A stretch of DNA of 64,000 nucleotides, taken from the IMG/VR virus record IMGVR_UViG_3300011423_000006, positions 60,303 through 124,302 of that record; one strand, given 5' to 3'. Position 1 is the first letter of the stretch. Each line of letters opens with the position of its first letter. Shown one piece after another: positions 251 through 44,592 of the stretch. The stretch is from a virus. Its lineage: Duplodnaviria; Caudoviricetes. A model generated the notes under the pieces. The model saw only the letters and a list, made by a program, of their open reading frames with translations, searched no databases and had not been told where the DNA came from. The translations under genes and the position numbers were made by a program.

Positions 251-563
251 TTTAGATGGAACAATTTGTTATAATAAACAAATAAATCAAAAATATGAAG
301 ATGTTTTGCCCATTGAAGGCGCGGTAGAGAAAATTAGACAATGGAAAAAGGACGGGCATGAGATAATTATTTATACGGCTCGTAACATGGCGACATGTAA
401 TAATAGTTTAGGCAAAATTATTAAGAATCAATCTTCGATAATTACCGATTGGTTGAATTATTACGGGATTCCATTTGATGAGTTATGGTTCGGGAAGCCG
501 TTAGCAGATATTTATATTGACGATAAAGCTTTAAAATTTGAAAATTGGAATATTAATTTATGA
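234..563 (+). CDS. HAD-family capsule-biosynthesis-type phosphatase (EcbF/BcbF-like)
   Basis: DLDGT motif I, IYTAR, GKPLADIYIDDKA motifs III/IV. Confidence 0.85.
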   Translation: MRVCLDLDGTICYNKQINQKYEDVLPIEGAVEKIRQWKKDGHEIIIYTARNMATCNNSLGKIIKNQSSIITDWLNYYGIPFDELWFGKPLADIYIDDKALKFENWNINL

Positions 564-3131: not shown

Positions 3132-3134
3132 ATT

Positions 3135-7130: not shown

Positions 7131-7136
7131 ATAATT

Positions 7137-8371: not shown

Positions 8372-8380
8372 AGGATTTTA

Positions 8381-24257: not shown

Positions 24258-24263
24258 AATATT

Positions 24264-25448
24264 ATGCATTTGGTAGAACGCTATTCGTTAGATTCTTCTT
24301 CTAAAATTGATAAACCATTTATTTATCAAAAATTTTATCCTTTGGTTGTAGATAAATTCATTACTTTTCAGCCGGTTTCTAAATATGGGTCTAAAAATTA
24401 CGATTATTGGGCCGATGTATTATTTATTTTAGAGCCAATTTTAAAGAAAAGCGGCATTCAGATCGTCCAAATTGGAGGCCCTAACGAAAAAGGATTCGAT
24501 GGGATTTATCAAACCCAAGGACAAACCAATTTAGGTCAAGTTAGCTATATAATAGACAAGGGGCTGTTGCATTTGGGGGCCGATTCGTTCGGAACTCATA
24601 TGGCAAGTTATTTAGATAAAAAAATTGTTACTATTTATTCTAATAACTTTGTTGAATGTGTTAAGCCTTATTGGGGCGATGCAAATAATCATATTTTGCT
24701 AGAGCCCGAACGTAATGGCCAAAAGCCAAGTTTTTCCGCCGAAGAAAATCCTAAAACAATTAATACAATCAAACCCGAAAAAATAGCCGAAGCAGTTTGT
24801 AAATTGCTTAACTTGGATTATGATTACCCCTTTGAAACGGTATATCACGGAGCCTTTTTTACTCAACCCAAGATGTTAGAAATGGTTCCTGATTTTGCCG
24901 TCAATGTATCTAATTTAGGGGTCGATACAATTATTGCTAGAATGGATTTTAATTTTGACGAAACTATTTTGGCTAATCAATTAAGAGCTTCTAATTGCGT
25001 CGTGGTTACAGACCGGCCTATTTCTGAGTCCTTGATTTTACAATTTCGCGATAGAATTAAGCAAGTTGTTTACGATATCAAAGAAAATAATGATCCAAAA
25101 TTTGCAATGTTTTTGAATAAAATGGGTATTAATTTCGGATTAATCAGCACGTTACCCGAAGAAACATTGAATAAATTTAAATTAGATTATTTGGATATTG
25201 GTTTGATTCATAGAAAAGATGTTCCTCAAAAAATTGAGCATACTACTTTTAGTCATTTGAATATCAAGGACTTATATTATCGAACTAATAAAGTTACATT
25301 GGGGCGTCAAAAAATTTATAATTCAAAAGCTGCATGGTTAACTAATGTGCCGAGCCCGAATTTTGTTCCCGCTTTTATGCCCGCCATTGATTCCCCGGCG
25401 TTTTTTGAAGAAATCGATTATTTATATATTGTTAAAATAAAGAATTGA
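24264..25448 (+). CDS. GT9 C-terminal lobe plus an unknown C-terminal domain
   Basis: MHLVERY start, KNYDYW, IVQIGG, LHLGADSFGTHMA. Confidence 0.72.
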   Translation: MHLVERYSLDSSSKIDKPFIYQKFYPLVVDKFITFQPVSKYGSKNYDYWADVLFILEPILKKSGIQIVQIGGPNEKGFDGIYQTQGQTNLGQVSYIIDKGLLHLGADSFGTHMASYLDKKIVTIYSNNFVECVKPYWGDANNHILLEPERNGQKPSFSAEENPKTINTIKPEKIAEAVCKLLNLDYDYPFETVYHGAFFTQPKMLEMVPDFAVNVSNLGVDTIIARMDFNFDETILANQLRASNCVVVTDRPISESLILQFRDRIKQVVYDIKENNDPKFAMFLNKMGINFGLISTLPEETLNKFKLDYLDIGLIHRKDVPQKIEHTTFSHLNIKDLYYRTNKVTLGRQKIYNSKAAWLTNVPSPNFVPAFMPAIDSPAFFEEIDYLYIVKIKN

Positions 25449-25473
25449 CTTGGGTTTTAAAATAAGCTATTAT
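25445..25473 (+). promoter_or_regulatory. sigma70-type promoter
   Basis: TTGACT-N17-TATTAT upstream of ATG 25487. Confidence 0.65.
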
Positions 25474-25486
25474 TAAAATAGATTTT

Positions 25487-26236
25487 ATGGACAAACCTTT
25501 TGTGACGACATTGAATGAATTCGGGTTGGTTGCCGGTCAAACTTATATTTTTAAAGACGAGGGGCGGCGGGTTGATTGGCGAGCTATGATTCCTGCTGAA
25601 TATTTAGTTCCTAATAAACAAAATTTCGAAAAACGTGGCGAAAAAATCCCTCAAGATATCAAGGGAATTGCAGACAAGGATTTGCTGATTCTTTTAGATG
25701 GGATTAAATACGTTGCGGATTTACGCGGATTCGAATCTGTAACCTATAATTTCAATTCTAGCCCCGAGCATTGTACCGCAAGTTGCACTATTGTTTGGTC
25801 CCCTAATTTTGAAACGCGTAACCAAGCCAAGACCTTTACCGGCATGGGAGACGCTAATTTTAGTAATACTAATGGTTTTGGTTCTAAATTTTTAGGCCCC
25901 ATTGCGGAAAACAGAGCATTCGTGCGGGCGGTTAGAAATTTCTTGCGTATTCCAATTTTGGGTAAAGATGAAGTGGACGGAGTAACCGCTCAAGAACCAA
26001 CAGAAGATAGGTCTATTAATCAAGAAATTGCGAAAATGCAAAAAGAATTATCAAATTTAATGGCAACAAATTCCATTAATTTTGAAACAATTAAAAATAA
26101 ATTAGTAGAAGAAGGGGTTCCTCAAGCCGAAAGTTTTACTTCTGTAGAAGATTTTCCTAAAGCTATTTTGATTAGTCTCGTTCAACGTCTTCAAAAGGTG
26201 AAAAAGGTAAAAGCCAAAACTAAAGTTAGCGCTTAA
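25487..26236 (+). CDS. possible Rad52/Erf-like single-strand annealing protein
   Basis: Beta sheet, then FTGMGDA and the helix IAENRAFVRAVR, as in Rad52-fold annealases. Confidence 0.45.
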   Translation: MDKPFVTTLNEFGLVAGQTYIFKDEGRRVDWRAMIPAEYLVPNKQNFEKRGEKIPQDIKGIADKDLLILLDGIKYVADLRGFESVTYNFNSSPEHCTASCTIVWSPNFETRNQAKTFTGMGDANFSNTNGFGSKFLGPIAENRAFVRAVRNFLRIPILGKDEVDGVTAQEPTEDRSINQEIAKMQKELSNLMATNSINFETIKNKLVEEGVPQAESFTSVEDFPKAILISLVQRLQKVKKVKAKTKVSA

Positions 26237-26271
26237 TTTTCCGTGAGTCAGTAAATCAAAAACATATATAG

Positions 26272-26303
26272 TAGGCCGGGGCCATATCCCCGGCTTATTT
26301 TTT
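26272..26303. terminator. terminator between convergent transcription units
   Basis: GCCGGGG-ccatat-CCCCGGC followed by TTATTTTTT, where the + and - gene blocks meet. Confidence 0.8.
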
Positions 26304-29300
26304 ATGCTAGTTTAATATAAGAGATGTGACTTTCTTTAGAAATAATTAATGGCTCTCCCCCGCCCGAATCATCGGCCCCGCTATGTAAAGCATATGGTTG
26401 CACGTTGATAGGACCAGTTAAAGAAGCAATTGTTCGTAATATATATTGGTCGTTAGCTTGTCGGAAAGGAGTAATTGTATTCGCAACATCGGCGGCGGAA
26501 GTAGTATCTCTAAATTTTACAAAGATATGGCTACAAGTTGAACCGTGAGTTGTGCCAAATATAAAATCAAGTAAATAAGTAGCCGTTCCTGCCGGAATAC
26601 TTAAAATTGGGCTATTAGAACCAAATGCTACTGCGGTCCATGTTGGTGCGCTTGTTCCGTCCCCGCCAAAAGGAATAGTAAAATTACTTCCCCCGCCATA
26701 AGTGATAGCAGAAGTATTATCAACTCCCGCCCCCGAAACTCCCGAAGTCCCCGCTGTTCCACTTGTGCCCGAACTTCCTGAAGTGCCATTTGTTCCATTC
26801 GCCCCGCCCGCGCCGGTTGCCCCCGTCGCGCCGGTTGCGCCAGTTGCCCCCAAATCTCCTGTTCTTGAAAAAGAAATTATAATATTTTCATTATTAGCAA
26901 AAAATCCATCGCTACTTGATACATAAGTTACGTTTAATTTAATATATCCAGTTGCGCTTGTATTGGCGGCAGTTATATTAAAAATAACAAAAACAGTAGG
27001 ATCAAATTCACGATATAAACGAATGCTACCTTTGATTGTCGAGGTACTATCGTCTAAAGCCGCTATCCAAGAGCTTCTAATATCGGTGCCGTCTTCGTTT
27101 TCATCGTCAATATAAATTTGAGTTACGTCAGTAGAAAAATCTACGTCATTAAATCTTAAAAATCCACTTCCGGGGTCGCTATCAGTGATTGAATCACTAA
27201 ATTGATATTTTTGACTATTGCCACCAAAGACTCCATTTTGTCCTGACGTTCCAGATGTACCAGATGCTCCAGAAATTCCAGATGTTCCCGAAGTCCCGCT
27301 TGTGCCCGAACTACCCGAACTACCCGAACTACCTGACGTTCCTGATGTTCCCGATGCCCCCGAAACACCCGAACTACCAGAGCTTCCAGATGAACCGTTA
27401 AATGGAGCGATTGTAGGTGTGCTAGAAATTGTTGCGGTAACATCGGTAGATAAAAATTCAAGTTTCCAATTTCCACTCAATAAATTTTGGTTTAACCAAC
27501 CAACAGAAACTTCCGTTAAAGCAATTTTAGGATAATGCCATACTGTGCCAGTCGTTCCTAATAAAATATGATAATTTGGAATTACCATATTAGTCCCACT
27601 ATAAGCAAATTGCACGCCACTAAAAGGAGCACTACCACGAATAGAAGCAGAAGTGTTAAACCATCCTGTACTTCCTACGTCAGCATAATTATATCCCCCC
27701 AACATAATATCCCATGCGCCTTGGCCCGCCGCATAAGTATATCCTTGCAAACGTATATTCGACATGTTGAACCGCGTACCACTTGGAAAGGTAAGCATAC
27801 AATATCCCGTTATAGGATTTGTTGTCCCAAAAGTGTCACTGGATATTCCTGTTAAATTTTCGTAACGCCAAAAACCATCGGCTCCACCTAGTTGAGTTAC
27901 TTGCTTTTTATGGAAAAGAATATCGCCCGCTTCTTCTGTTATTGGGGCGTCTCCGATGGCGTCTCCCGAAGTAAATTTAACTAAACGATTAACAGTACCA
28001 CTAATAACAGGATTTAAATCCCTTGACGCTCTAATATTAGATAAACTAGGAGACAAACTATTAACTTCTCGTCCGATATTTTCGTTACTACGATAATAAA
28101 GGCATCCAGTAACATTTTGAATTACATATAAACTATTTTGGGTAGGAACAGTTTGATTATCTCCTAATTCATTATTTAATAGCCAAATTCTATCGGCGTT
28201 TACCATCACAACAGAACTTGAAGCGGTACTTTGTCCATTATTAACAATTCGATTGTTTTTAATTGTCGTTTCCCCGGACATGGTAGTATTGATTAATCTT
28301 ATACCGTCTAATTTGGCTTTTTCAATTATACTATTTTCAATACTTACTTTATGAGTAGGATAAATTGGATTAGAAACGGCAAGAGAAAGAATTCCATAAT
28401 TTAAAGCATTTTTAATATTTAAATTTCTAAATTCTGTGTTTTCAATGCTACGATAAAATAAAATTCCAGCAGTATCAGACACCAACCCATCAACGATAAA
28501 ATTCTTAACTCCAGTGGTATTAGAACTATGATAATAAGCGTATATTGCGCCCACGCCTGTTAAACTGCTTTTAACAACTTCGTTCTTAAAAATAAAACTT
28601 ACATTACTATTTGCAGGAGCGCCAATTATTCCAAATTGAACCGCCGATGTAATTGACGTACCAGTAAAAGTATTTAAATTATAAGTGTTATTGCTGAAAA
28701 CGGCTTGGCCCGGACGAATATTAGTTGATCTTGCAAATGCACTTACTAATCCATTATCGAAATTACGGCTCGCGTAAAAATTATTATTAGAAATTTTAAA
28801 ATTAGGACCGCAATTTTCAGTGAAAGTAAAACAATAACTACTATCATTAAAATTCCCAACATCTGAATTTGAAAGCGTTCCGTTGTCGCCGCCAAATCCT
28901 ACGCCACCGGGAATAATACATTGATCGACTTTATAATGTTCGCTATTTCCGTGAAAATCTAATGCATATCCAATCCCAACGTTGCTAAGATGACATTTAT
29001 CAATTAAAATATCACGATTTACAACACAACCATATCCGGTTGCCCCACCAAATGAAATTACATGACGAGTTGTTTCTCCGTGACAGTCTGTAATAAATAC
29101 TTTTTGAGCATTACCAATAGCAAGACCATAGTTGTTTCCAACACTAGGCTGAGAATCTAAAAATCGGCATTTTGAAAAATGCAAATTATAGCCTCGATCA
29201 ACATAAATATTAGCATATTGACTATCCGCGCAATGGACATTATCAAAAACTACGTCTTCAACACAAGATAATTGCATTCCCGCTATTGAGGCACCCAAAC

Positions 29301-32300
29301 CCGCTTTGAAGTTTAAAGCAATATCGCGCACTTCTAAAGACGCAGAGTTTAATTTGAAAAGTTGAAATGACGCCCCGGTTCCATAACTGTCATAAAGCGG
29401 TTGAGTTAATGCGACCGCCGCACTACCTGAAATTTTTCCAACTTTGCAATATTCACCCGCGTAATAAAAAAATCTCGCAGGATTAAAACCACTTTGTTGC
29501 GTATTATGAATTATAAATACATCGCCAGTACTTAAACTATGAGGGGAACTAAAAGTAATAACATTTGCGCCCGACACCACATTACCACTTAAAGACGGAA
29601 GCGTAGTTAAAAATCCCGATCTATGCATTCCAACATTAGTTCCTAAATCAAAATTTAGAAAAGTTTTATTTGGGCCGTCTCCGAAGAAACTTGTGACACC
29701 GGTAATACCACTTAATATGTAGGTTCCAGCGGGGAAGAAAACAGTTTTGCTTCCTGTTAAAGCGGTATTAAAAGCTGTTTGCACAGCCGCATTATCGTTA
29801 TTAAATCCATCTCCAATAGCTCCATGAGCCTTGACATTAATAAAATAATCTAAAACCGATGTTCCCGATGAACCACCAGTGCCCGAACTTCCTGAGCTTC
29901 CAGAACTTCCCGATGAACCACTTGACCCCGAGCTTCCTGATGTTCCCGATGTTCCCGAGGCCCCGGAACTACCGGAACTACCAGAGCTACCATTAAAAGG
30001 CGAAATACTAGGAGTCGATGAAATCGTTAATCCATTTTCTGAATCTAAGAAATCAATTGCAAAATCGCCCGATAAAGCCGCTTGGTTGAGATATCCCACA
30101 TAAACATCTTCGACGGCAATTTTAGGATAACTCCAAACGGTACCGGTGTTTCCCAATAAAATATGAAAATTCGCAATAGGTAAATGTGTGCCACTGGAAG
30201 CAAATCTGACTCCAGTAAATGGAGCATTACCCCGAATTGAAGCAGAAGGGTTAAACCAGCCCGTAACTTGACCAACACCCGACTGAGAATAAAGATAACC
30301 ACCAATCATGACTTCCCAAGCTCCCTGACTGCTATTATATGTATAACCCCTGATGATTGAATTGATTATATTAAAACGAGTGCCACTTGGGAAACGTATT
30401 GATAATACACCAGTTAAATTTAAATTAATATCATCACTATAAGCTAAACAATTTTCATGTTTCCAGAATCCATCGGCCCCCCCTAATTTACTAATAGTTT
30501 TTCCAGTAGTAATAAAATGGCCGTTTTCTTCAGAAACGTTAGAACTAGTTGGTAATAAATTATTAAATTTAACTAATTGATTATTATTGCCGGAAAAAGC
30601 GGGCATTACGCTATACCATCCCGTCGAAACTGGAATTGCTCCGTTTCCTCCCGCTTTAAAATAAAACATTGAAGTTGGAGTACAATCCGTTCTACGATAA
30701 GTTGCTCTGCCAGCGATACCCGAAACTACACCTTCCGGGCTTCCCGCTCCTTCCAAATCCCCTTCAGCATTACCTATATTTGCCCAAGTAAAACTACGTC
30801 CTCCACTAATAGCCGTATTCCCATTCCATTCTAACGATCTTGCTCCGACGATATTCCATGCTGTTCCGTTAAGAGCGGGAGCATTAAATAAACAATTTTT
30901 AACAATAAATCTCTCATTAACAACTACAGCTATTGCACTATTTCCGGGTCCAATGGTAGTAACGCTTGTATTGTATAAAGCAATTGCTCCATTAATTAAA
31001 CTCGTAGCATAAAACCCATTATTTCTAATACTATGAATTGTATCCGAAGTAAAAGAAGCAAATCCACCCGAAGAAAAATTTTGCATTTCTACGGCCCCCG
31101 CGCTTGTACTAGGAGCACTACCAAAGTAATAATTATTAGAACTTTTAATATTTCCCGCCGCATTTGTTATTTGTAACGCGCGTCCTGATGGATTATAACA
31201 AAAATTAGAATCTAAAATTACATCTTTATAACTATCTGCTAATCCGGTGCCCCGTCCTGCAATTCGTATAGCTGGCACATTTCCTACGTGAAAAATTCTA
31301 TTATTACTTATAATAGCACGACCATAATCTAATTCGGCATTACCTAAAACACGATTTACATCAACTAAAATACCGCCAATTCCTTCTGTGAGCCCAATAC
31401 CAGTATAAATTCCAGAAACAAAATTTCCTTCGATTACAGGAGAGAGACTGTTTTGACATTTGATTGTTGCATATTGACTATCAATAAATTGATTATTACG
31501 AATTATTCCTTTTGCTGTTCCTTCATAAAAATCAATAGCTCCAATATGATTTGAATTACCGGAACGAGGATAACTTTGACCAATTTTTTCAAAATAACAA
31601 TTTTCAATAATAGGCGTAATGATTGTATTAGTTGAAAGTTGGCCTCCAAAAATAAAACCACCGGGAGCTTTAGCCGTATCACTTGGGTAACTTGTTTGAA
31701 CAACTCGACAATTTGAAATATAAAAATGAGGATTTATATTACTTGTTACGATAGATACTGCAATAGCCGCCGATAATTCTGATGGACTTGCAAGATAATT
31801 ACCGCCGTGTTCAGCCCCATCAATAAAATTTACATGATCGATATATACGCTGGTCTTTGTAGCAAGGTCCATAATACCAGCGTAAGTATAATTTGTAATA
31901 TTTACATTACGAATATGCATTCCGCTGGAGTTAATTGATAAACAAGCGTATCTACTATTACTAACTCCAGTTAAAACTTGTTGTGATTTATTACCATCTA
32001 AAGTTCCGCCCTCAAAAACCGCACTACAAGGGACGGTATAACTAATCATGTTACTAACTCCGGTCCCTTTATGTTTTAGTCTTGCTCCTTGGGCTAATAA
32101 AAATCCCACATCTTTACTAACAATTAAATTATCTAGAATATAAATTCCAGAAGAAACATAAATTATACTTTTAGGAGGGGCGGCGGTGATTGTTGCGGCA
32201 AACGAAGTTGTATCATTTGTAAAATCATCTCCCAAAGCCCCATAATCTCTTACATGATAATAAATATCAGTTCCAGAACTTCCGCTACTTCCCCCGGTTC

Positions 32301-33981
32301 CAGACGTACCGCTTGATCCAGCACTACCCGCTGTTCCAGAGCTACCATTAAAAGGAGCGGGAGTTATTGTATCCGTAACCGTAATTCCATTTTCACTATT
32401 AAGTAGATTTATATCATATAATCCGCTCCAATATTCTTGGTTTGCTTCGCCAGCATATAAATCACTAATACAAATTTGCGGATTTGTCCAAACCGTTCCA
32501 GTATTACCTAATAAAATACAAAAACCGGTGTTATCATATCCGAGGCGAACGTTAGAAAAAGGCGGCGTTCCTTTAATGTGACCAGTATGATTTACCCAGA
32601 CATTGGCGGCTCCACCCCAATTAGGATTGCCTCCTAAATCTAAATCCCATACTGAAGTATCAGAGGTATAATTAAACCCGATAATCTTCATTCGCATGAA
32701 AGATTGAATTGCTGTGGTTCCAGTGGCGGGAGTTCTAATTCTTATAGTTCCTGTAGACGAAGACGTAAAAGCAGCATAAGAAGCAACGTTTTCATATCTC
32801 CAAAATTGAAAATCTTGATTTCCAAATTTGTTGATCATTTTTCCACTCTCAACTACCAAACTTCCTTTTGATTCTGATAAAATAGAATTAGTAATTAAAT
32901 TACGGTCGGTAAATTTAGGGAAATAACCCGCCATACCAGTATTACTTACTTCAACAACTCGCGCCCCCGTCCAATATAAATCTCCGCTAAGATTATAAAT
33001 GCGACTCGTAGTAGTTGATGGAGTTACAGTTTGAGGATGCAAAACATTCGGGCTTTGAAAAGTTTGCTCGCCGGTAAATGTATTTGGTAAAAATTTATTT
33101 GGAAAAATTACTGTATTTGGAATATAGTTACGTTGCCATACTCCAAATTCATTAGCGTAAGTTGTGTAAGTCCCAGAAGGGAAATTAGCGGTAAATCTTA
33201 CTCCAAGCACAGTTGCTTGCCAAGTATTACGAGTCCCAATCCAAGTAGTGGTTCCAATCCAATTGGCACTATTAGGAGCTTCGTTATTAATAACTCCCCA
33301 AATACCACCAGTAAATATTTCTACCACCATCCCGGTAGGCCGATTAGTACCAAAACGATGAATATAAAAAGGATACCAATTGGCACTATTCGCGTGAGCT
33401 AAATTTAAGCCCGAAAATTCTATTGTAAAAAATGGAGTATTGGTTGTACCGTTAGTATTAATAATTGCAATAGAGGTTGAATATCCTGAAATATTGGCTA
33501 TATTTTCATTTTTATAAAGTGCTTGCGGCGATTCTAAATGCAAGTCGCCGGTTGTAACAGTAACCCGCCCCCCTCTTTCGGTATAATGAGCTAGGACGTT
33601 ATGAGTTTTTCCGCCCATAATTCCATTAGAAGCGTCAGTTTCGTTGTTGCCTTTAGTTAAACCGGGTAAATAAAGAAAATCTGCTCCGGTAACAGGAGAA
33701 ATAATTCCTGATACTCTTTGAAACATGTCGCCGCCGTCGCGACCAGATGAACCGGCGCTTCCCGATGTTCCCGAAGTGCCAGAAGACCCCGCCGTTCCAG
33801 AAGAACCCGAAGTAGTTGCCGAATTGTCTCCAACAGTTTGAACAACCCACAACCCACTAATTCTGATATAACGGTCTTTAGTGTCCCACTCGTCAAAAAC
33901 CCCACCGTCCATGACGTTGTTTGGTTTTACGTCAAGACTAGTTCCAAAAAACCGATCCCCGGCATAGCGCACGATTGGCAT
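26302..33981 (-). CDS. giant tail fibre/spike (2559 aa) with two pectate-lyase-like beta-helix domains, three repeated ~200-aa domains and Gly-Ser/Thr triplet tracts
   Basis: HVRDYGALGDDFTND and NVKAHGAIGDGFNND...FFPAGTY beta-helix starts; repeated ILLG.TGTVW..P.I domain; GSS/GTS repeats. Confidence 0.85.
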   Translation of the reverse strand: MPIVRYAGDRFFGTSLDVKPNNVMDGGVFDEWDTKDRYIRISGLWVVQTVGDNSATTSGSSGTAGSSGTSGTSGSAGSSGRDGGDMFQRVSGIISPVTGADFLYLPGLTKGNNETDASNGIMGGKTHNVLAHYTERGGRVTVTTGDLHLESPQALYKNENIANISGYSTSIAIINTNGTTNTPFFTIEFSGLNLAHANSANWYPFYIHRFGTNRPTGMVVEIFTGGIWGVINNEAPNSANWIGTTTWIGTRNTWQATVLGVRFTANFPSGTYTTYANEFGVWQRNYIPNTVIFPNKFLPNTFTGEQTFQSPNVLHPQTVTPSTTTSRIYNLSGDLYWTGARVVEVSNTGMAGYFPKFTDRNLITNSILSESKGSLVVESGKMINKFGNQDFQFWRYENVASYAAFTSSSTGTIRIRTPATGTTAIQSFMRMKIIGFNYTSDTSVWDLDLGGNPNWGGAANVWVNHTGHIKGTPPFSNVRLGYDNTGFCILLGNTGTVWTNPQICISDLYAGEANQEYWSGLYDINLLNSENGITVTDTITPAPFNGSSGTAGSAGSSGTSGTGGSSGSSGTDIYYHVRDYGALGDDFTNDTTSFAATITAAPPKSIIYVSSGIYILDNLIVSKDVGFLLAQGARLKHKGTGVSNMISYTVPCSAVFEGGTLDGNKSQQVLTGVSNSRYACLSINSSGMHIRNVNITNYTYAGIMDLATKTSVYIDHVNFIDGAEHGGNYLASPSELSAAIAVSIVTSNINPHFYISNCRVVQTSYPSDTAKAPGGFIFGGQLSTNTIITPIIENCYFEKIGQSYPRSGNSNHIGAIDFYEGTAKGIIRNNQFIDSQYATIKCQNSLSPVIEGNFVSGIYTGIGLTEGIGGILVDVNRVLGNAELDYGRAIISNNRIFHVGNVPAIRIAGRGTGLADSYKDVILDSNFCYNPSGRALQITNAAGNIKSSNNYYFGSAPSTSAGAVEMQNFSSGGFASFTSDTIHSIRNNGFYATSLINGAIALYNTSVTTIGPGNSAIAVVVNERFIVKNCLFNAPALNGTAWNIVGARSLEWNGNTAISGGRSFTWANIGNAEGDLEGAGSPEGVVSGIAGRATYRRTDCTPTSMFYFKAGGNGAIPVSTGWYSVMPAFSGNNNQLVKFNNLLPTSSNVSEENGHFITTGKTISKLGGADGFWKHENCLAYSDDINLNLTGVLSIRFPSGTRFNIINSIIRGYTYNSSQGAWEVMIGGYLYSQSGVGQVTGWFNPSASIRGNAPFTGVRFASSGTHLPIANFHILLGNTGTVWSYPKIAVEDVYVGYLNQAALSGDFAIDFLDSENGLTISSTPSISPFNGSSGSSGSSGASGTSGTSGSSGSSGSSGSSGSSGSSGTGGSSGTSVLDYFINVKAHGAIGDGFNNDNAAVQTAFNTALTGSKTVFFPAGTYILSGITGVTSFFGDGPNKTFLNFDLGTNVGMHRSGFLTTLPSLSGNVVSGANVITFSSPHSLSTGDVFIIHNTQQSGFNPARFFYYAGEYCKVGKISGSAAVALTQPLYDSYGTGASFQLFKLNSASLEVRDIALNFKAGLGASIAGMQLSCVEDVVFDNVHCADSQYANIYVDRGYNLHFSKCRFLDSQPSVGNNYGLAIGNAQKVFITDCHGETTRHVISFGGATGYGCVVNRDILIDKCHLSNVGIGYALDFHGNSEHYKVDQCIIPGGVGFGGDNGTLSNSDVGNFNDSSYCFTFTENCGPNFKISNNNFYASRNFDNGLVSAFARSTNIRPGQAVFSNNTYNLNTFTGTSITSAVQFGIIGAPANSNVSFIFKNEVVKSSLTGVGAIYAYYHSSNTTGVKNFIVDGLVSDTAGILFYRSIENTEFRNLNIKNALNYGILSLAVSNPIYPTHKVSIENSIIEKAKLDGIRLINTTMSGETTIKNNRIVNNGQSTASSSVVMVNADRIWLLNNELGDNQTVPTQNSLYVIQNVTGCLYYRSNENIGREVNSLSPSLSNIRASRDLNPVISGTVNRLVKFTSGDAIGDAPITEEAGDILFHKKQVTQLGGADGFWRYENLTGISSDTFGTTNPITGYCMLTFPSGTRFNMSNIRLQGYTYAAGQGAWDIMLGGYNYADVGSTGWFNTSASIRGSAPFSGVQFAYSGTNMVIPNYHILLGTTGTVWHYPKIALTEVSVGWLNQNLLSGNWKLEFLSTDVTATISSTPTIAPFNGSSGSSGSSGVSGASGTSGTSGSSGSSGSSGTSGTSGTSGISGASGTSGTSGQNGVFGGNSQKYQFSDSITDSDPGSGFLRFNDVDFSTDVTQIYIDDENEDGTDIRSSWIAALDDSTSTIKGSIRLYREFDPTVFVIFNITAANTSATGYIKLNVTYVSSSDGFFANNENIIISFSRTGDLGATGATGATGATGAGGANGTNGTSGSSGTSGTAGTSGVSGAGVDNTSAITYGGGSNFTIPFGGDGTSAPTWTAVAFGSNSPILSIPAGTATYLLDFIFGTTHGSTCSHIFVKFRDTTSAADVANTITPFRQANDQYILRTIASLTGPINVQPYALHSGADDSGGGEPLIISKESHISYIKLA
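26725..26859 (-). repeat. collagen-like Gly-X-Y tract (GAT/GTS)
   Basis: GATGATGATGATGAGGANGTNGTSGSSGTSGTAGTSGVSG in the protein. Confidence 0.85.
27233..27399 (-). repeat. (Gly-Ser/Thr-Ser)n tract
   Basis: NGSSGSSGSSGVSGASGTSGTSG... encoded by degenerate 9-bp repeats. Confidence 0.9.
29858..29994 (-). repeat. (Gly-Ser/Thr-Ser)n tract
   Basis: NGSSGSSGSSGASGTSGTSGSSG... Confidence 0.9.
32269..32349 (-). repeat. (Gly-Ser/Thr-X)n tract
   Basis: NGSSGTAGSAGSSGTSGTGGSSGSSGT. Confidence 0.9.
33742..33815 (-). repeat. (Gly-Ser/Thr-X)n tract
   Basis: TTSGSSGTAGSSGTSGTSGSAGSSG. Confidence 0.9.
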
Positions 33982-34008
33982 TTTTAATTCCTTTTACCTT
34001 AACTATAT

Positions 34009-34015
34009 ATTACAC
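34009..34015 (-). promoter_or_regulatory. GTGTAAT putative late promoter for the giant fibre gene
   Basis: GTGTAATATATAGTTAAGGTAAAAGG...ATG; overlaps the upstream stop codon. Confidence 0.6.
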
Positions 34016-36097
34016 TAAATTATTTGATTTTAGTGTTTTTATAACTGTTTCTGGAGTAATAGACTTAGAACAAACAAAATCTTGATTTCGGGGGCACCAT
34101 TTCCAGTTTCCGGGGTCAAACCTATGGTTTTGATCATTCCAGCAACTATTACATAAATAATTGTTATGAATACGAATACAATCGAACTCATTCCAAGGGG
34201 CCGTAAACCCAGAAATCATTACAACCTTCTTACCTAAGGCCCAAGCTAACCAAGGAACGCCCGAACTAACTCCAATAACAAATTCAGCATGTCTTAAATA
34301 ATTAATAGCAGCTTCAATATTTTCATGAGAAAAATAATCTATATTTTTTAAATCTGTTTGTTCTTTTTGAACTAAAGCTATTTTAAATCCTTCCTTTTTG
34401 AGATAGTTGATTAAGGTTTGCCAGCCTTCAGGATGATTCCAAAATTTAGCTTGTGCGGTTGAATTTACGCTAATTGCGACGTATTTTTGAGGAATAATTC
34501 GTTTAGTAACCGGAAAATGAATTTTGGGGGCGATTTCTTTATAATCCAATCCTAAAATATCAGAGGCAATTCTTTGAAGCGGTATTGTGCGTGGGTCAGT
34601 TTTATGTCTAAATCGATCAGAAGGAACGAAAAACCCAATGTTATACATTGCATACATATCATTAACGGTCGTTCCCGGCGCGACGAACTCGATTTGTGGA
34701 TATGTGTCAACAAACAAATGATTCCAAAAAGTAGAACAAACAATCTGACAATTATGTTTTTTACGGAATTCTTCTACATAAGGAAACCATGCAATCGTGT
34801 CTCCCAAAGCTTTGCTATCTAAATGTATGTAAATTTTTTTATTGGTCGCCTCATAATAATGTTTGTGTAATATTTTTCCCTGAAGGTTTTTTACTCGTAT
34901 TTCATAATTTATAAAATATTTGAAATTAGTTTTAGACCAAGTGTTGGATTTTAATGTAGTAGAATAAAGAGTTTTTTGTTCATTTCTGTCTATGAATTCT
35001 ACATTGTAAGTATTATTAGAATATCCTTTGATTTCAAAGAAAGCTCCATCAATAAAATTAATATTAAATTCATCTTTGACGGGCTTGCTGCCAGCTTGAG
35101 GATTAAAAGAAGACGTATCGTAAATAGTTTTTAAACTTGTTTGAAACTTATTATAATTAAAAGATTCTTTAATATCTAAAACAGATTGGTAGATGTTTTC
35201 TAATTTTTTAGTAATAATTGAGTAATCATGGGCGCGGGCGGTATTTAAAGCGGCTTGATAATAACTGCTATAATCTTTTTGTATTTTTAAAATTGCTTCT
35301 TTAATTTCTTGCAAATTATGACGCGAGACTTTAACCAGTCCCGGCAATTCTGGCCCCGAATAAGTTGCAATTACCGGATTTCCGCACGCCATAGCTTCTA
35401 AAAGTGTAAGGTTGGGGTGCCCCGCTTCTAATTCACTTAAATGTAAAAAAATACTATGATTAGAATATAGATCGCGCAGTTTTTCGTCATTAAAATCATA
35501 GAGAACGCTTAATTTATTGTATGTTGGACGTAGTTTTTCAAAATAGGCTTGATTGTTTTGAGTCGGCCCCGCAATAGTTATCTCCATGTTTAATGATTGA
35601 GCAACTTTAATAGCCATTTCAAAGCCTTTTCGGTCTGCGGTTAAATCATCTGCATAACCATTGTTTGCCACACATAATAATTGTTTACCAGTAGAAGTTG
35701 GCGATGGCTTAAAAAAATTAGTATTAACTCCATGAGAAAAATAAAACGTCTTGTAAGGATGATCAAAATAATTAACTAAATATTCTGCTGGTACCAAAGA
35801 AATAATAGATTTTTGAATAGCCTTTTGGTTTTCCAGAAAACAAGACGAAGTTTTTCCCCATCGCACTGTATGATGATCGTGCATATGGAAAATATAAGGG
35901 ATATTCCTTTCGGCCAGCATTAAGGCTTGATTAGCAACATTGACATGGACAATATCATACATTCCCGGTTTAATTTCGGCGGGGTATCTAATATCACTTT
36001 TTAAATATGTAGCATATTCCCAAATAATTGATTCAATCGCTCCATAATTAGTGCGTGGAATGGGAAGAATCCCCGGATTTATTTGACAGGTTTTCAT
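34010..36097 (-). CDS. GT4 fused to a TibC/Aah-family (BAHT) protein O-heptosyltransferase
   Basis: GT4: YGAIE, RKG, EAGHPNLTLLEAMACG. BAHT: SKALGDTIAWFPYVEEFRKKH, STAQAKFWN, IGVSSGVPWLAWA, ISGFTAPWNEF, iron-finger CNSCWND...WCP...C. Confidence 0.88.
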   Translation of the reverse strand: MKTCQINPGILPIPRTNYGAIESIIWEYATYLKSDIRYPAEIKPGMYDIVHVNVANQALMLAERNIPYIFHMHDHHTVRWGKTSSCFLENQKAIQKSIISLVPAEYLVNYFDHPYKTFYFSHGVNTNFFKPSPTSTGKQLLCVANNGYADDLTADRKGFEMAIKVAQSLNMEITIAGPTQNNQAYFEKLRPTYNKLSVLYDFNDEKLRDLYSNHSIFLHLSELEAGHPNLTLLEAMACGNPVIATYSGPELPGLVKVSRHNLQEIKEAILKIQKDYSSYYQAALNTARAHDYSIITKKLENIYQSVLDIKESFNYNKFQTSLKTIYDTSSFNPQAGSKPVKDEFNINFIDGAFFEIKGYSNNTYNVEFIDRNEQKTLYSTTLKSNTWSKTNFKYFINYEIRVKNLQGKILHKHYYEATNKKIYIHLDSKALGDTIAWFPYVEEFRKKHNCQIVCSTFWNHLFVDTYPQIEFVAPGTTVNDMYAMYNIGFFVPSDRFRHKTDPRTIPLQRIASDILGLDYKEIAPKIHFPVTKRIIPQKYVAISVNSTAQAKFWNHPEGWQTLINYLKKEGFKIALVQKEQTDLKNIDYFSHENIEAAINYLRHAEFVIGVSSGVPWLAWALGKKVVMISGFTAPWNEFDCIRIHNNYLCNSCWNDQNHRFDPGNWKWCPRNQDFVCSKSITPETVIKTLKSNNLV

Positions 36098-38046
36098 ATT
36101 TTAGTTGCGAATAAAATTCCTTCGTGATCGTGTATTGATCCTTCTTGTTGAGTAGATTGTTTTCGAAAGGTGACTTTAAAACCATGTTGGTATAATTTCC
36201 CGGCGACAATAGCAATTTCTCCATTTTGGCCAAAATGAAATTCTAAAATAATTTGTTGGATTTGGCTTAAATCGTGAGCATCAAAATTTTGAAATATAGC
36301 GTATTCATGTCCTTCTATGTCCATTTTTAATAAAGATACTTCTTTGATTTCTAGTATCCTTATCATATCCTTCCAAGTAATAGTGGCGACTTCGGTTTTA
36401 CCGTAATTATAATTTAAAGTCGGAAAATTATTAATGAACCGGCTAATAGTTGTGTTTTCGTCAGTAAAATAAATATCTCGCGTTCCCGAGGCAGTATCTA
36501 AAGCCATATTTAAAGGCGTAATTCTTTGATCGTCGGAACATAAATTACTTAAATTATCATATGCTTTTTGAATTGGCTCTAGAGCATAGATTTTTTTAGG
36601 ATTTTTGGTAGCAATGTATTTAGTGAATAACCCCACACTTGCTCCGATATCTACTACGGTATTTAGGTTGGAAAAATCAATAATAGAGTTTTCGTAAACT
36701 TTAATATCAAAAAACTCCCGATAATTAATATACGCACAGTCAAAAGGACTTAGATTTAATTTAGTTTTCTCTTGCGGCGGTTTTAATCGAAAGGTTTTAC
36801 TTAAAAGTAATTTTTTGTTTTCATCGTAGAATTCTATTAAAAATCCGTTACAAAAACGGTCTTCGGCAAAATTATGGCCATTGATAGGAACACACCAAAC
36901 ATTTCCTCCTGTCCATAAATTAATATCCTGCCAAAAGTAAATGGGAATTTCTGAATCGATTTCTTTGATAACACAATATTTAAAAAAAAGATTTTGAGAA
37001 TAACTAGAATGAATTAAAATTTTATTTGATTCGGGCTCATATTGCACCGATAGATAAGCATCTAAAATAGAAGTAATGGGTGATTTTTTAGTTTCGAGAC
37101 TCAATAATTCAACAATTTTCGAAGAATCTTGATCTATATTACCAGTTAAAAAAGAAATGTCTCGCACGTTATTATATTTTCCTAAATAAACATCTAAATT
37201 ATACATTAATAATGGAATTTGGTTCTCTAAAGATTCTTTGATAATCAAGGGATTTAATTCTTTGTCTCCAACGCATCCCTCCGAAGGAAATAGACTTAAA
37301 TCTCCTGCTTGCAAAAAATCCTGAACATCGCTTCGTTCTCCCCATAAAATACAATTAGCTGGTTTTTGATCGATAATCGGCTTCCAATAATGAGCAAAGT
37401 TATCAGCCGTGTTCCCAATAAAATGAAACAAAACGTTATTATTCAAAAGTTTCTTAGCTAATCGGAACGCATATCCTTGGTTTTTTCTGGGAGTAAATAA
37501 TCCAACGATAACAATATGTTTTTGATTAAGGTCTAAACCTAGTTTTTTTCGGACGGCTTGTTTGTCAAAACGAATGCTTTCAATAGGAAACTCGACAACT
37601 TCGCAAGGAACGTCAAAATTAGCATATTGAATTTTACTGAATTGACACACGAAGATAAATTTATCAGGGAAAAAAACTTTATTAGCTACATTAAAATCTG
37701 ACGTATGAGTTGTTTCGAAAATTAAATAAGGACGCGGCGATGCATAAATTTGCGCGGCGGTTGCATAATCCATAAACATTTCTGGAATTTCCGCTAAATG
37801 AATGTAATCAGGACGAATGGTTTGAATTATTTTTAAAATTTGTGTTTTGTCTTCCCCTAAAGTATAAAAAGTAGTTGACAAAAGTTGACGAATTTTGTTC
37901 TTTTGAACAACAAAAGTATCGGAAATATTGGCCCACTCAACTAAATGAATATTAAAGAAGGGTTTTAAAGCCTCAATTTTTTTTAATAAATACTGCGGCA
38001 TTCCGCCAGTTGACAAATGGCTAGTTATGAATAAAATCGTTTTCAA
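36094..38046 (-). CDS. GT4 fused to an FkbM-family methyltransferase
   Basis: HLSTGGMPQ, VGLFTPRKNQ, ELNPLIIKE; VDIGASVGLF, ALEP, LKMDIEGHE, ILEFH; TTG start. Confidence 0.88.
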   Translation of the reverse strand: MKTILFITSHLSTGGMPQYLLKKIEALKPFFNIHLVEWANISDTFVVQKNKIRQLLSTTFYTLGEDKTQILKIIQTIRPDYIHLAEIPEMFMDYATAAQIYASPRPYLIFETTHTSDFNVANKVFFPDKFIFVCQFSKIQYANFDVPCEVVEFPIESIRFDKQAVRKKLGLDLNQKHIVIVGLFTPRKNQGYAFRLAKKLLNNNVLFHFIGNTADNFAHYWKPIIDQKPANCILWGERSDVQDFLQAGDLSLFPSEGCVGDKELNPLIIKESLENQIPLLMYNLDVYLGKYNNVRDISFLTGNIDQDSSKIVELLSLETKKSPITSILDAYLSVQYEPESNKILIHSSYSQNLFFKYCVIKEIDSEIPIYFWQDINLWTGGNVWCVPINGHNFAEDRFCNGFLIEFYDENKKLLLSKTFRLKPPQEKTKLNLSPFDCAYINYREFFDIKVYENSIIDFSNLNTVVDIGASVGLFTKYIATKNPKKIYALEPIQKAYDNLSNLCSDDQRITPLNMALDTASGTRDIYFTDENTTISRFINNFPTLNYNYGKTEVATITWKDMIRILEIKEVSLLKMDIEGHEYAIFQNFDAHDLSQIQQIILEFHFGQNGEIAIVAGKLYQHGFKVTFRKQSTQQEGSIHDHEGILFATKI

Positions 38047-38053
38047 CCTTATA

Positions 38054-38082
38054 ATTATAAGGGTTTTTCCGATAGAAATCTA
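38054..38082 (-). promoter_or_regulatory. sigma70-like promoter for the GT4-FkbM / GT4-BAHT pair
   Basis: TAGATT-N17-TATAAT-N7-TTG; the -10 box lies inside palindrome CCTTATAATTATAAGG (38047-38062). Confidence 0.55.
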
Positions 38083-38086
38083 ATTT

Positions 38087-41000
38087 TTATGTGCCTGTGG
38101 CGCAAACAGAAGCGACCCTAACTTTAATGCCATTGACATAAGAATTCCAAACTGTATAATGTTTGCCGCTTTCCAGTTCGTAATTGGCACTTATTAGAAC
38201 ATGATAACCCGTCGCATCTCCAGTTTTTAACTCAATTCCGGTAACGTAAAGTTTTTCTTTGCCGGATAAAGGCCCCCAAATTTCTGTTGGTCCGGGGCGG
38301 ATAATAAACTGATTTGGGGAAATGTAAGACCCCGCTTCGCTCATGATTTTAAGTTGAAATCCTCTTGCAATGTTTTCACTTACCATTGGGATAATTCCGC
38401 TTAATTGATAAACAGTTCCAACTAAATTAATAGAAAAACTAGTTGGATAATTATTAAAATAAAATCCTGTTATATCTCTAATTCCCGAACCGCTAATTTT
38501 AACCCAATTTCCGGTAATATCCTGCGTCGGGAAAAATCCTGACATATGTAGATTTTCAATATAAGTGAAATAATTAGTTGAAACAGTATTTCCGAAATTA
38601 GTATAAACATCAAATTGTCCCGAGCGTGGCGCATAATTAGCAGGAGGATAGAATGTGATTTGTGACAATCCGCTACTTGCCAAAGTGCAAAGACTACGAG
38701 TTGCCCCGGATAATAAATATACTCCGGTGGTTCTACTTAGACTAAATCCATTCAAAGTTACTAAAGTATTTTGATTGCCTCGGTCTGGAGTAAAAGAATC
38801 AATAGTTGGGGCGCTTTGTAATATATTGATATTTCCAGTGAGAGTTTGAGGGCCAACTCCAGATATCATTTGGGAACTTCTTAGACCCGCAACTGTTGTT
38901 GCCGTTGAATAAAATGAATTAACTAATAATAAAGCCCCGGTTCCGGCGAAATCAGTATTTAAAGTAAAAGTAAATACGGTAAAACCAGTCGAAGGACTAA
39001 CAATACCCGCTCCGCTAATTTGACTATAATTAACGGTGGCGGCACTATTAACAATATTCGCTAATATTCCATCTCCCGTTGCAAAAATAGCGGTAGACAA
39101 GGCGTGTCCTGCGTTAATTCCAGAAATTACAACCGTTGTTCCGGTTGTTGCACTCGCGGGCGCGAAAGCTCTAATTGTAGGTAACGGGTAAAAAGCTCCG
39201 GTTGTCCCGTTAAATAAACGCCCTAATCCGCTAATTAAAATTGGACCGTTTACAATTTCCCTTGGAACAGTAAATGTCGCCCCGGTGCCATTAATGACGC
39301 TCACGCTTCCTGCTTCTACATACCTTCCTGAATTGATATTTGGGAAGAAGAAGGTACAACCACTTAAATTATTACCCGAAATTCTGACGGTAGATTGATA
39401 AACGCCAGTATTCGGAGTGTAGGAATTAATAACTGGAGTAGGAATAATAGTAAAATTAGATGAACTAGTAATTGTTGCTCGATCTGTTCTAACTTTAATT
39501 GGTCCTGTTTTTGTGCCATTGGGAACGTTAATTCTAATTCCAGTACTACCGATAATCGAAAAACTAGATTCTCCTATTGAAATATCTCCGGTATTTCCCG
39601 AGAACAAAACATAATCTACATAATTAAAATTACTTCCCGAAATAGAAATTGTGTCTTGCCAATAGCCGCTTGTTGGAGTAAATAAACCAATAGTTGGATA
39701 CGCGCTTAATACTTCAAAAATTCCTGTAGAACGAACCGAGCCGCCATTATAATACAAAGAAATATAATCTGTATTTGCGCCCGTTGGAACGGTAGCAGTA
39801 ATGCCAGTACTTCCAATAATACTGAAAACAATCGCTTGCCCCGAACCAAAATATACGCCCGTAGTATTACTTAAATTTGATCCAGATATTGAAACAAAAT
39901 CGCCAAAAGCTCCCGAAGTAGGTCTGAATCCACTTATTCCCGGCGCTTGAATTAATCTTAAACCACTAATACCTGTTACCCAACCATATTGATTATATAA
40001 TATGATATCATTAAAACCCGTTCTAGCCGCAACCGGAATATAAAATTGAATTGAATCATGACCAGTTGGAATAGAGCCGGTTAATACAGTGGCTTCTACG
40101 CCCGTAGTATTAAAATAAATTCTAGAATCAGGATACAGATTTCTTCCTGTAAACGTAATTAAAGCTCCCACCGCTCCGCTACTAGGAGTAATATTATAAC
40201 GAATTGGAACGGTACGAATGAAAACTCCGCTATATCCTGTTGCGCTACCTTCTGGAGTAGTAATGACAGTGTGATAATATCCGCCCGTTCCTAGAGGATA
40301 TTGAAAAGCAATTACATCTCCTAGTTGACTTGTAGAAATTTGAGAAGTAGGAATGGTAAAAGTACCAGTCGTTCCTGATACCCGAACCGAAGATACTTCG
40401 AAAAAGTTAGTACCTTCTAATACTGCGTAACCAGAATAAAAACCAGTTTGAACACCGCTGCTTGTAATTGTTGGAGGGTGATGCCTTAATTTGAAAAAAC
40501 CAGTCGAAGCATATGGATTTAAATCAGGATCATATAAAAAGACCGCCCCGCTTTTAGCGTTATATGGAACCAAGCCCGTTAATCTTGTAGAATTAATTCG
40601 AATAAAATGACCCGTAACGTCGCCCCCTCCGAAACTAACTAAAAATGAATTAGTTGTATTTGGAATTTTATATAAAATATCTTCGTAAAAATTAAATCCT
40701 AAAATTTCAATCGCGCTTCCGGTGCGAGCACTACTAGGACTCAAGCCGGTAATTGTAATATATGCGCCGAAATCTGTAGTAGAAGAAACGCGCACGCCGC
40801 TTTGTCCTAATAAAGTAATACGGCCTCGAAAATTGCCAGTTGGTACTAATCCTGAAATGCCCGTATTTGTCAAAACTCTAAAAGTAGTTGTAAACGGGCT
40901 AACATTTGGTAAATTATTAAATAAAACTCCAGTTATGCCCGAAAATCCATAACCTTGAATAATAACTGTTTCACCCGTATTACCCGTAACAGGGGTAAAT

Positions 41001-42272: not shown

Positions 42273-43115
42273 TTAATAAAATTTAGAGACTTCTACCGCC
42301 GTTTTCACAAAATCGTCCAGTTGGACGTTAATTTCAGATGTTTTAATGCGAGTTCCAGATAATGAAATAATCAAGGATGGAGAATTGACGCCCGTAGATG
42401 CAATATAATGATATGGTAACAAATTAATTTCATTGTCGTTGTTTTTTTGTAAAAAAGCTGTAGAAGATTCTCTACTTGCTTCTTCGCCGCTAAATTGAAT
42501 ATTATGAAAAACATCTCTGACAAATGACATACTTTCGGACATTTGCATAAGTTCGACTTGATTAGATAAAGAGTTCGCGACGGTAAAAACCGGGCTCCAG
42601 TCTATTTCTAAATTATAATTAAAATCATAAATAGGAACGGTTAAATAACTATTTCCCGATAGAATTTGAGTTGTCCATCCGTGAGCTAAAAATCCACTAA
42701 AATTACTAATAGAATTTTCTCCCGAAATACGGGCTCGTAAAACTCCTGAGAATGGTTTGTAAGTAGTAAAAGCAGCTTCAGCCTTGACTAATTGATTAGG
42801 AGCGCTTTTCAGACTATAACTTGTTAAATAGCAATTGAATCCAGTCACCCCACCAATTACGATGTTAATTCCATCATAACTTCCTGTTAAATTTTTAAAT
42901 GTATTGGTTAGGGGAAAAATCGGCTCTGATAACAAATTAATATAATAAGAAAAATTGACTGTTCCCTCGATCCCGTCTTCGGGGATTTGATTGAAAATCC
43001 CGCGCCGTCCTATTCCATAAACAGGTTGTATATTATTACGCGCCCGGATAGTGGCAGAATCCGCCAAAATACCCGAATTATTCACAGAAATATGACAAGC
43101 ATCAAAATAAACCAT
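42273..43115 (-). CDS. tail-tube-like protein (paralogue)
   Basis: QPVYGIG...GTVNFSYY...NCYLTSYSL pattern shared with the major tail protein. Confidence 0.6.
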   Translation of the reverse strand: MVYFDACHISVNNSGILADSATIRARNNIQPVYGIGRRGIFNQIPEDGIEGTVNFSYYINLLSEPIFPLTNTFKNLTGSYDGINIVIGGVTGFNCYLTSYSLKSAPNQLVKAEAAFTTYKPFSGVLRARISGENSISNFSGFLAHGWTTQILSGNSYLTVPIYDFNYNLEIDWSPVFTVANSLSNQVELMQMSESMSFVRDVFHNIQFSGEEASRESSTAFLQKNNDNEINLLPYHYIASTGVNSPSLIISLSGTRIKTSEINVQLDDFVKTAVEVSKFY

Positions 43116-44060: not shown

Positions 44061-44080
44061 ATTTGATAGGTTTAAGGTTT

Positions 44081-44590: not shown

Positions 44591-44592
44591 AT

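Follow-up and report, generated by a model that had tools for sequence, protein, structure and literature searches.

We examined a 64,000-nucleotide stretch of phage DNA (the window, bases 60303-124302 of the 124-kb IMG/VR virus record IMGVR_UViG_3300011423_000006, which is estimated to be 64% complete) and describe two enzyme genes lying directly upstream of a giant tail fibre gene on the minus strand. The first (36094-38046, TTG start) encodes a 650-aa fusion of a glycosyltransferase family 4 (GT4) domain with an FkbM methyltransferase domain, and its stop overlaps by 4 nt the start of the second (34010-36097), which encodes a 695-aa protein joining another GT4 domain to a domain of the TibC/Aah type. 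Between the stop codon of this enzyme (34010-34012) and the ATG of the 2559-aa fibre gene (26302-33981; ATG at 33981) there are 28 nt. The first convincing terminator 3′ of these genes is a GC-rich hairpin of 12 bp with a T-run at 26270-26299, between convergent gene ends, which likely closes the fibre transcription unit; apart from this hairpin, our promoter and terminator scans returned nothing above shuffled expectation. The whole minus-strand block runs from 44030 to 26302 and comprises two small paralogues, a 1394-aa IPT/TIG protein, the two enzyme genes and the fibre, and it is placed amid the lambda-like tail-tip genes M, L, K, I and J and the tape measure gene. Judged from sequence, we favour with moderate confidence the reading that the two enzyme genes form a phage O-glycosylation cassette acting on the phage's own tail fibre, which would mean that the phage probably sugar-coats its own fibre.

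A TibC-type enzyme beside a collagen-like fibre

The TibC-like part forms the C-terminal half of the 695-aa protein (residues 340-695; 34013-35080) and matches the TIGR04414 profile with 302.4 bits, against a curated cut-off of 200, over profile positions 26-372 of 374, a result reproduced in the genome search. The protein also matches TibC itself (PDB 4rap; phmmer E 4e-52, residues 347-683) and the GT9 nucleotide-sugar lobe PF01075. An AlphaFold (AF2) model of the domain, built on a 13-sequence alignment, was of good predicted quality (predicted local distance difference test, pLDDT, 86.5; predicted template modelling score, pTM, 0.87) and contains the N-terminal beta-barrel, GT-B core and iron-finger insertion of the TibC protomer. 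In Foldseek it matched 4rap with a template modelling (TM) score of 0.88 (E 3.7e-34), and the next-best folds were the lipopolysaccharide (LPS) enzymes WaaC and WaaF (TM about 0.5, E about 1e-7), which belong to the same GT9 superfamily and share its nucleotide-sugar lobe (PF01075), but have neither beta-barrel nor iron finger and act on a lipid-linked oligosaccharide.

Alignment to 4rap places most of the TibC active site in the phage enzyme. The catalytic base Asp-110 corresponds to Asp-433, the beta-phosphate ligands Thr-226 and Lys-230 to Thr-547 and Lys-551, and the heptose-O4 ligand Trp-305 to Trp-616 (functions from PMC4358343), and the iron-binding cysteines 339, 342, 358 and 370 correspond to Cys-649, 652, 668 and 676, which are invariant in 80 of 80 viral loci. 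Position 300, which governs the choice of heptose stereoisomer in the TibC family (PMC4358343), is Ser, as in Aah. On its profile score, modelled fold and most catalytic residues, we take the domain to be a genuine TibC-family enzyme. We did not, however, file it as an equivalog: it has neither Arg-286 nor an autotransporter partner, it falls outside the bacterial clade, and its thumb is doubtful.

The N-terminal GT4 half of the same protein (residues about 1-310; 35168-36097) matches PF13692 (E 5e-10, 40.3 bits) and PF00534 (E 3e-9, 36.9 bits), has a weak PDB sequence match to BshA-type GT4 enzymes, and was the only half matched in PHROGs, where we found no family for the TibC-like domain. 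In the 650-aa protein, a GT4 domain (PF00534, 28.5 bits, cut-off 26.4) is followed by a middle beta-rich region and by the FkbM domain (residues about 459-625; 36172-36672), which scores well above threshold with both PF05050 (E 1e-12, 49 bits, cut-off 22.7) and TIGR01444 (E 3e-21, 76.2 bits, cut-off 37.7). A recent duplication of the two cassette GT4 domains was ruled out, their pairwise similarity not being significant.

From its domain order, the fibre reads as beads on a string and not as one long collagen rod. An N-terminal anchor (residues 1-58) is followed by tract 1 (residues 59-85, 9 triplets; 33727-33807), a globular part and the first copy, A1, of a repeated all-beta module of about 200 aa (residues 348-545; 32347-32940). 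Then come tract 2 (residues 546-572, 9 triplets; 32266-32346), a first beta-helix, module A2 (residues 1127-1330; 29992-30603) and tract 3 (residues 1331-1375, 15 triplets, with Ser or Thr in 93% of X and Y positions; 29857-29991). These are followed by a second beta-helix (residues about 1380-1946; 28144-29844), module A3 (residues 1991-2195; 27397-28011), tract 4 (residues 2196-2255, 20 triplets; 27217-27396), a domain of about 120 aa (residues about 2257-2373; 26863-27213), tract 5 (residues 2375-2419, 15 triplets, beginning with Gly-Ala-Thr and ending in the Gly-Thr-Ser type; 26725-26859) and a C-terminal domain. The five tracts, delimited by a Gly-[ST]-[ST] scan, total 68 triplets with zero Pro; the X position holds Ser, Thr or Ala, and 46 of the 68 have Ser at Y. 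They contain no charged pairs.

The protein has the features of a collagen-like fibre, namely Gly-X-Y runs of at least six triplets, a Pfam Collagen match (PF01391, E 9e-19) and a tail context. Its further Pfam matches are Pect-lyase_RHGA_epim, the pectate-lyase-like Gp49 and Beta_helix, and among PHROGs it matches the tail protein phrog_13768 (E 7e-56) and several tail-fibre or collagen-like minor-tail families. Both beta-helices, after tracts 2 and 3, are of pectate-lyase type, and the second is tailspike/depolymerase-like (PF12708, PF22442, PF13229; phrog_13768). The three module copies are 32-52% identical (A2 and A3 at 52%; internal BLASTP E 1e-25 to 2e-31), and each is closed by the motif PFN exactly where the next tract starts; an AF2 model of the module, with the three copies as alignment, reached a pLDDT of 43, too low for fold assignment.

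Parts of the fibre recur at other viral loci. Homologues of the 120-aa domain were found by tblastn in smaller tract proteins of loci L007, L058 and L027 (37-49% identity, E 3e-13 to 3e-23), directly downstream of the enzyme gene in the first two and several kb upstream of it in L027, and residues 1-58 are 47.5% identical (E 6e-16) to the N-terminus of the enzyme-adjacent fibre of L059. Whole-fibre orthology across loci was rejected, as tblastn with the entire fibre matched the 120-aa domain alone.

An earlier note on this DNA, made from the letters and their reading frames, had claimed a TibC/Aah motif set fused to a GT4 domain at 34010-36097, a GT4-FkbM fusion upstream of it, and five GSS/GTS tracts in a 2559-aa fibre 28 nt from the enzyme stop. 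The motifs it quoted are present, and the profile and structure searches against TibC/Aah that it proposed agree with them, as given above; PF00534, PF05050 and TIGR01444 confirm the upstream fusion, the five tracts are there, and the genes lie at the coordinates it gave. Its comparison of the gene layout likewise holds, for the order of enzyme and then substrate mirrors that of Aah and then AIDA-I, seen in bacterial locus L419.

The closest known systems are TibC-TibA and Aah-AIDA-I of E. coli, whose enzymes are bacterial autotransporter heptosyltransferases (BAHT; TIGR04414; structures 4rap/4rb4; PMC4358343). They have in common with the phage enzyme the beta-barrel, the GT-B core and a 1Fe-0S iron finger, together with the catalytic Asp, Thr and Lys as phosphate ligands, Trp as sugar ligand and the four Cys. 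In both settings the enzyme gene lies directly upstream of the gene for a very large repetitive surface protein, and by this likeness hyper-glycosylation of Ser in Gly-rich repeats would be the expected outcome. Unlike its bacterial relatives, the enzyme described here is phage-encoded, fused to a GT4 domain and altered at Arg-286 and in the thumb, and it is paired not with a beta-helical autotransporter but with a tail fibre whose Gly-[ST]-Ser tracts are collagen-like.

Linkage of enzyme and tracts across viral loci

The pairing of enzyme and tracts was followed in both directions. A tract open reading frame (ORF) was defined by at least six Gly-X-Y triplets and called Ser/Thr-rich when Ser or Thr filled at least 60% of X and Y. 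In 80 viral loci picked solely for the enzyme (1.17 Mb), we found a Gly-X-Y ORF in 46 and a Ser/Thr-rich one in 40, as against 6 and 0, respectively, of 133 control viral loci obtained via two arbitrary k-mers (1.22 Mb; Fisher p 3e-21 for the Ser/Thr-rich ORFs). After dereplication at 80% identity the association was present in 29 of 50 clusters, with the tract gene directly adjacent in 11, and in twelve examples the gap from enzyme to tract gene measured 3-94 nt, mostly 30-45 nt. For the reverse direction, 44 viral records were collected via the DNA pattern (GGN WSN WSN)x8; a TIGR04414 match at E <= 1e-10 occurred in 12 of these and in none of 50 control records (p 4e-5). Thus, the genomic linkage of BAHT genes and (GSS/GTS)n fibres that had been predicted is positive both ways, and the enzyme-tract pairing recurs in many uncultured phages. 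Ser/Thr-rich Gly-X-Y ORFs were found in 0 of 58 classical bacterial BAHT loci, and in 8 of 22 phage-like enzyme loci borne on metagenome-assembled genomes (MAGs).

The fibres next to the enzyme have at least three unrelated N-terminal anchors and differing globular domains, which leaves the tract as the feature they share; its triplet signature, with Thr or Ser at X and Ser at Y, is alike in this fibre and in the neighbours. A Pfam census of 92 immediate neighbours in the 50 dereplicated loci counted GT4 (16), Collagen (10), the tail-fibre chaperone Peptidase_S74 (6) and TIG (1), alongside methyltransferases, tail sheath and other virion genes. Homologues of the phage GT4 domains occur in 42-49 of the 80 enzyme loci and those of the FkbM domain in 15. 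Enzyme family, fold, active-site residues, gene layout, tail context and two-way statistical linkage are established by these data.

The TibC-like domain is very common in environmental data and rare in cultured phages. We recovered 1788 proteins at E <= 1e-10 within the length band searched, and many of the best 120 of them are fused to a GT4, FkbM, class-I methyltransferase or GT2 domain. At least 551 IMG/VR stretches match the domain, as opposed to 4 of 50,697 GenBank phage records (two 735-kb and one 636-kb uncultured phages, and Microcystis phage Mel-JY01). The closest homologues of the present enzyme are 61% (P0007) and 59% (P0010) identical. In a FastTree phylogeny of 164 domains, 56 bacterial sequences including the true Aah form a clade with support 1.0, and this autotransporter-linked group contains none of the 84 viral or 22 MAG-borne sequences. 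The putative virus-specific TibC branch would number hundreds of uncultured phage contigs or more and be almost absent from cultured phages. The MAG-borne sequences (L218-L239), which were the nearest matches among genome contigs, are assigned to unrelated phyla, for example Ignavibacteriaceae, Pacearchaeota, Staphylococcaceae, Patescibacteria and Rickettsiaceae, mostly on short contigs, and are probably phage contigs binned into MAGs.

Conservation of TibC Arg-286 differs between the branches: 55 of 57 bacterial members retain it, as does the true Aah beside AIDA-I (L419), against 34 of 80 viral members. Its loss goes with fusion, affecting 36 of 44 fused and 12 of 39 stand-alone enzymes (Fisher p 3e-6, uncorrected for phylogeny). 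Within viral loci L005-L084, enzymes that keep Arg-286 tend to be stand-alone proteins of about 400 aa with a separate GT4 gene of about 316 aa upstream. Such natural variation could be used to study what sets donor specificity in GT9 enzymes.

In Mel-JY01 (PP395634.1), a 1226-aa GT4 and TibC-like protein (4750-8430, plus strand) is annotated just as 'methyltransferase FkbM'. A 1016-aa open frame at 2-3052 (plus strand) of the same record holds about 200 Gly-X-Y triplets and overlaps annotated coding sequences on the opposite strand; this collagen-like gene may be mis-annotated. Mel-JY01 would serve as a cultured system for testing the fibre-glycosylation hypothesis.

Proposed fibre glycosylation and its alternatives

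What follows on the acceptor, the sequence of reactions, methyl capping and the benefit is our inference. The cassette would act in the cytoplasm of the infected cell, before or during fibre assembly. Priming would fall to the TibC-type domain, which through Asp-433 would place a sugar on Ser, perhaps also Thr, in the proline-free Gly-[ST]-Ser tracts; the glycan so begun would be lengthened by the two unrelated GT4 domains and O-methylated by the FkbM domain. Ser at the Y position always precedes Gly, and one mapped TibA site has a like context (N-S-G-G). Tracts with neither proline nor Lys/Glu pairs should be poor triple-helix formers, and the benefit of the modification may be to stabilise or stiffen them, as well as to shield the fibre. 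According to PMC11923368, glycosylated Thr can stand in for hydroxyproline in triple-helix stabilisation, and fibre glycosylation gains a functional rationale from this replacement. The examples given there are BclA of the Bacillus anthracis exosporium, Riftia cuticle collagen and (Gly-Pro-Thr)10 peptides, in which collagen-like Gly-X-Thr repeats, akin to the tracts, carry O-linked sugars that replace hydroxyproline in stabilising the helix (PMC11923368, citing Daubenspeck 2004, Mann 1996 and Bann 2000). In these examples, however, the repeats contain proline, the transferases are unrelated or not identified, and the setting is non-viral; the phage tracts are proline-free with mostly Ser at Y.

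Virion glycosylation itself has a precedent in mycobacteriophages, where, according to work cited in PMC12619734 (Freeman et al. 2023, PMC10527164), phage glycosyltransferases encoded beside structural genes O-glycosylate the phage's own virion proteins, as proposed here; there, by contrast, capsid and tail-tube C-termini are modified, neither a TibC-type enzyme nor a collagen-like acceptor is involved, and the hosts are actinobacterial. These phages and the glycosylated collagen-like BclA are the nearest functional precedents. The mycobacteriophage enzymes described by Freeman et al. in 2023 are reportedly of GT2 type. To our knowledge, glycosylation of phage virion proteins is experimentally known from mycobacteriophages alone, and the TibC/Aah family solely as a virulence-linked modifier of bacterial autotransporters. 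Our literature search, whose coverage left out most subscription journals, returned no paper on phage or viral TibC-type enzymes or on heptosylated collagen-like fibres. If functional, the cassette would give the TibC family a new acceptor class (collagen-like tracts) and a new setting (virion assembly), and would explain the folding of the very long proline-free Gly-Ser/Thr repeats that are common in environmental phage fibres. It would also provide a simple sequence rule for predicting glycosylated phage fibres, and such glycosylation would bear on host recognition, particle stability and the recognition of phages by immune systems or predators. With two or three genes, the cassette is small enough for a direct test in E. 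coli.

Several observations weigh against tract glycosylation by this enzyme. Linkage is not obligate, as about half of the enzyme loci have no tract gene inside 10 kb and, of six near-complete tract records, three carry the enzyme and three do not; the loci compared are samples of contig fragments and phylogenetically non-independent even after dereplication. At 9-20 triplets, the tracts of this fibre are far shorter than those of some other phages, which reach hundreds of triplets. The BAHT substrates known so far are folded beta-helices and not collagen-like tracts, and the fibre has two beta-helices as well. TibC modifies Ser and not Thr (PMC4358343), which bears on the Thr part of the proposal. 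In the enzyme itself, TibC Arg-286 is replaced by Ala-597, and the thumb region is about 11 residues shorter (30 residues between anchors, against a median of 41 in Aah and bacterial members), with an Asp aligned to the thumb-tip Phe-265. In TibC, the tip of this beta-hairpin thumb (Phe-265/Val-266) links dimers into a dodecamer ring (PMC4358343). Because of the Ala replacement and the shortened thumb, both the donor and the oligomeric state may differ from those of TibC.

The earlier interpretation is supported in part: its TibC/Aah family assignment, GT4-FkbM fusion, layout and linkage stand, and the roles it gave to the GT4 domains (extension) and FkbM (methyl capping) are plausible, but its claim that heptose is taken from ADP-heptose is unsupported. 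On that last claim the enzyme would use host ADP-heptose and add a +192 Da heptose, as TibC and Aah do, a chemistry we hold to be possible but doubtful. Its TIGR04414 score exceeds the equivalog cut-off and a second, partial GT9-like gene lies nearby, and heptose as the transferred sugar is a possibility because the O4 ligand Trp-305, the phosphate ligands Thr-226 and Lys-230, and Ser-300 are all as in Aah. ADP-heptose is nevertheless not assured, because the adenine-reading Arg is missing: TibC Arg-286 hydrogen-bonds adenine N1 and was used by the authors to explain ADP specificity, and its mutation to Ala abolished or strongly reduced activity (PMC4358343). The more frequent loss of this residue in viral members also speaks against an ADP-heptose donor, as does the pathway content of the phage, since no SIS_2/GmhA, PfkB, GHMP kinase, NTP_transferase or CTP_transf_like gene was found in the 124-kb record, itself 64% complete, which shows a weak 18-bit NTP_transf_3 trace just upstream of the window. 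Supply would then depend on the host, and an island of the phage genome itself encodes unusual sugar-nucleotide enzymes. We tentatively extend the proposal, knowing that the full chain may well fail, to a virus-specific TibC branch that would be the priming enzyme of virion O-glycosylation, with Gly-[Thr/Ser]-Ser as sequon and a sugar coat enabling stable triple helices; its Arg-286-less sub-branch, this phage included, would have switched donor, possibly to a sugar from the phage island.

Concerning the acceptor, glycosylation might still be of a virion protein, yet fall on the fibre beta-helices or the IPT/TIG protein, or on both besides the tracts; we judge this unlikely. TibC recognises a folded beta-helix, and the Ser residues that it modifies lie in loop contexts, N-S-G-G being one (PMC4358343), and the fibre offers two pectate-lyase-type beta-helices. 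The IPT/TIG protein (1394 aa; 38087-42271, minus strand; Pfam TIG_SUH), the upstream neighbour of the cassette in the same-strand block, stands first in the genome for [ST]G excess, with 90 such dipeptides where shuffled sequences predict 35.8 (z 11.7); the non-tract part of the fibre ranks next (z 4.7). An IPT/TIG protein comes after the enzyme gene in loci L033-L035. The 1394-aa protein is a possible second acceptor, but it is built of about a dozen Ig-like repeats, which account in part for its excess, and the excess may only reflect their consensus. Among the 92 neighbours, collagen-like proteins numbered 10 and TIG proteins 1, with no beta-helix family among the 25 families shown; fibres next to the enzyme often have tracts without matching the beta-helices of this one, and tblastn with the IPT/TIG protein against the 80 enzyme loci gave no match, which ruled it out as a general enzyme partner. 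A non-protein acceptor, either a host envelope glycan (in serotype conversion or superinfection exclusion) or phage DNA, we consider very improbable. Phage glycosyltransferase genes often serve such roles (according to PMC12619734), the genome has a large separate glycan island, and GT9 enzymes typically act on LPS cores, WaaC and WaaF being the next-best folds. The modelled fold is, however, far nearer to protein-specific TibC than to these LPS heptosyltransferases and keeps the beta-barrel and iron finger peculiar to the TibC branch, the cassette genes lie within the tail module co-oriented with the fibre, and the two-way linkage with tract proteins would go unexplained.

Flanking genes and the sugar-nucleotide island

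Three plus-strand genes within 22347-26236 converge on the fibre 3′ end, so that the fibre gene is flanked on both sides by sugar-transferase-like genes. A 636-aa protein (22347-24257) matches the phage glycosyltransferase family phrog_2170 (E 2e-12) and had no Pfam match, and a 249-aa protein is of no assigned family. Between them, a 394-aa protein (24264-25448) contains a partial GT9 (heptosyltransferase-family) nucleotide-sugar lobe (PF01075, 26.9 bits, cut-off 22; weak TIGR02201). A PDB sequence search with this last protein gave no match, and after profile and PDB searches it was rejected as a second TibC-type enzyme; it may belong to the same glycosylation set.

The sugar-nucleotide island spans 234-11009 of the window and L298:11360-18301 (genome 53359-60302). 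It encodes an NDP-sugar C-methyltransferase, RibB, an APH-like kinase, a HAD phosphatase, a transaldolase/FSA-like enzyme, GT4, GT2 and DUF5672 proteins, a GFO/IDH/MocA oxidoreductase and two GDP-mannose-dehydratase-type enzymes; GmhA was not found among its genes. An unusual donor for the fibre cassette could come from this island. A 177-aa protein with a cyclic-phosphate processing receiver domain, cREC_REC (9337-9870, plus strand; PF20274, E 1e-18), is encoded between the sugar island and the second GDP-mannose dehydratase gene.

On the other side of the cassette, the 280-aa neighbour of the IPT/TIG protein (42273-43115, minus strand) has an [ST]G z of 4.0. PHROG matches beyond the block identify the minor tail protein homologues M, L, K (two copies) and I (44063-47754, plus strand), a lambda-J-like central fibre gene (47758-51498, plus strand) and the tape measure gene (52370-57532, minus strand). 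The two K-type genes lie in tandem (45636-46340 and 46316-47083, plus strand) and both match the lambda K-type minor tail family phrog_30 (E 5e-41 and 9e-51), a duplication within the tail-tip module.

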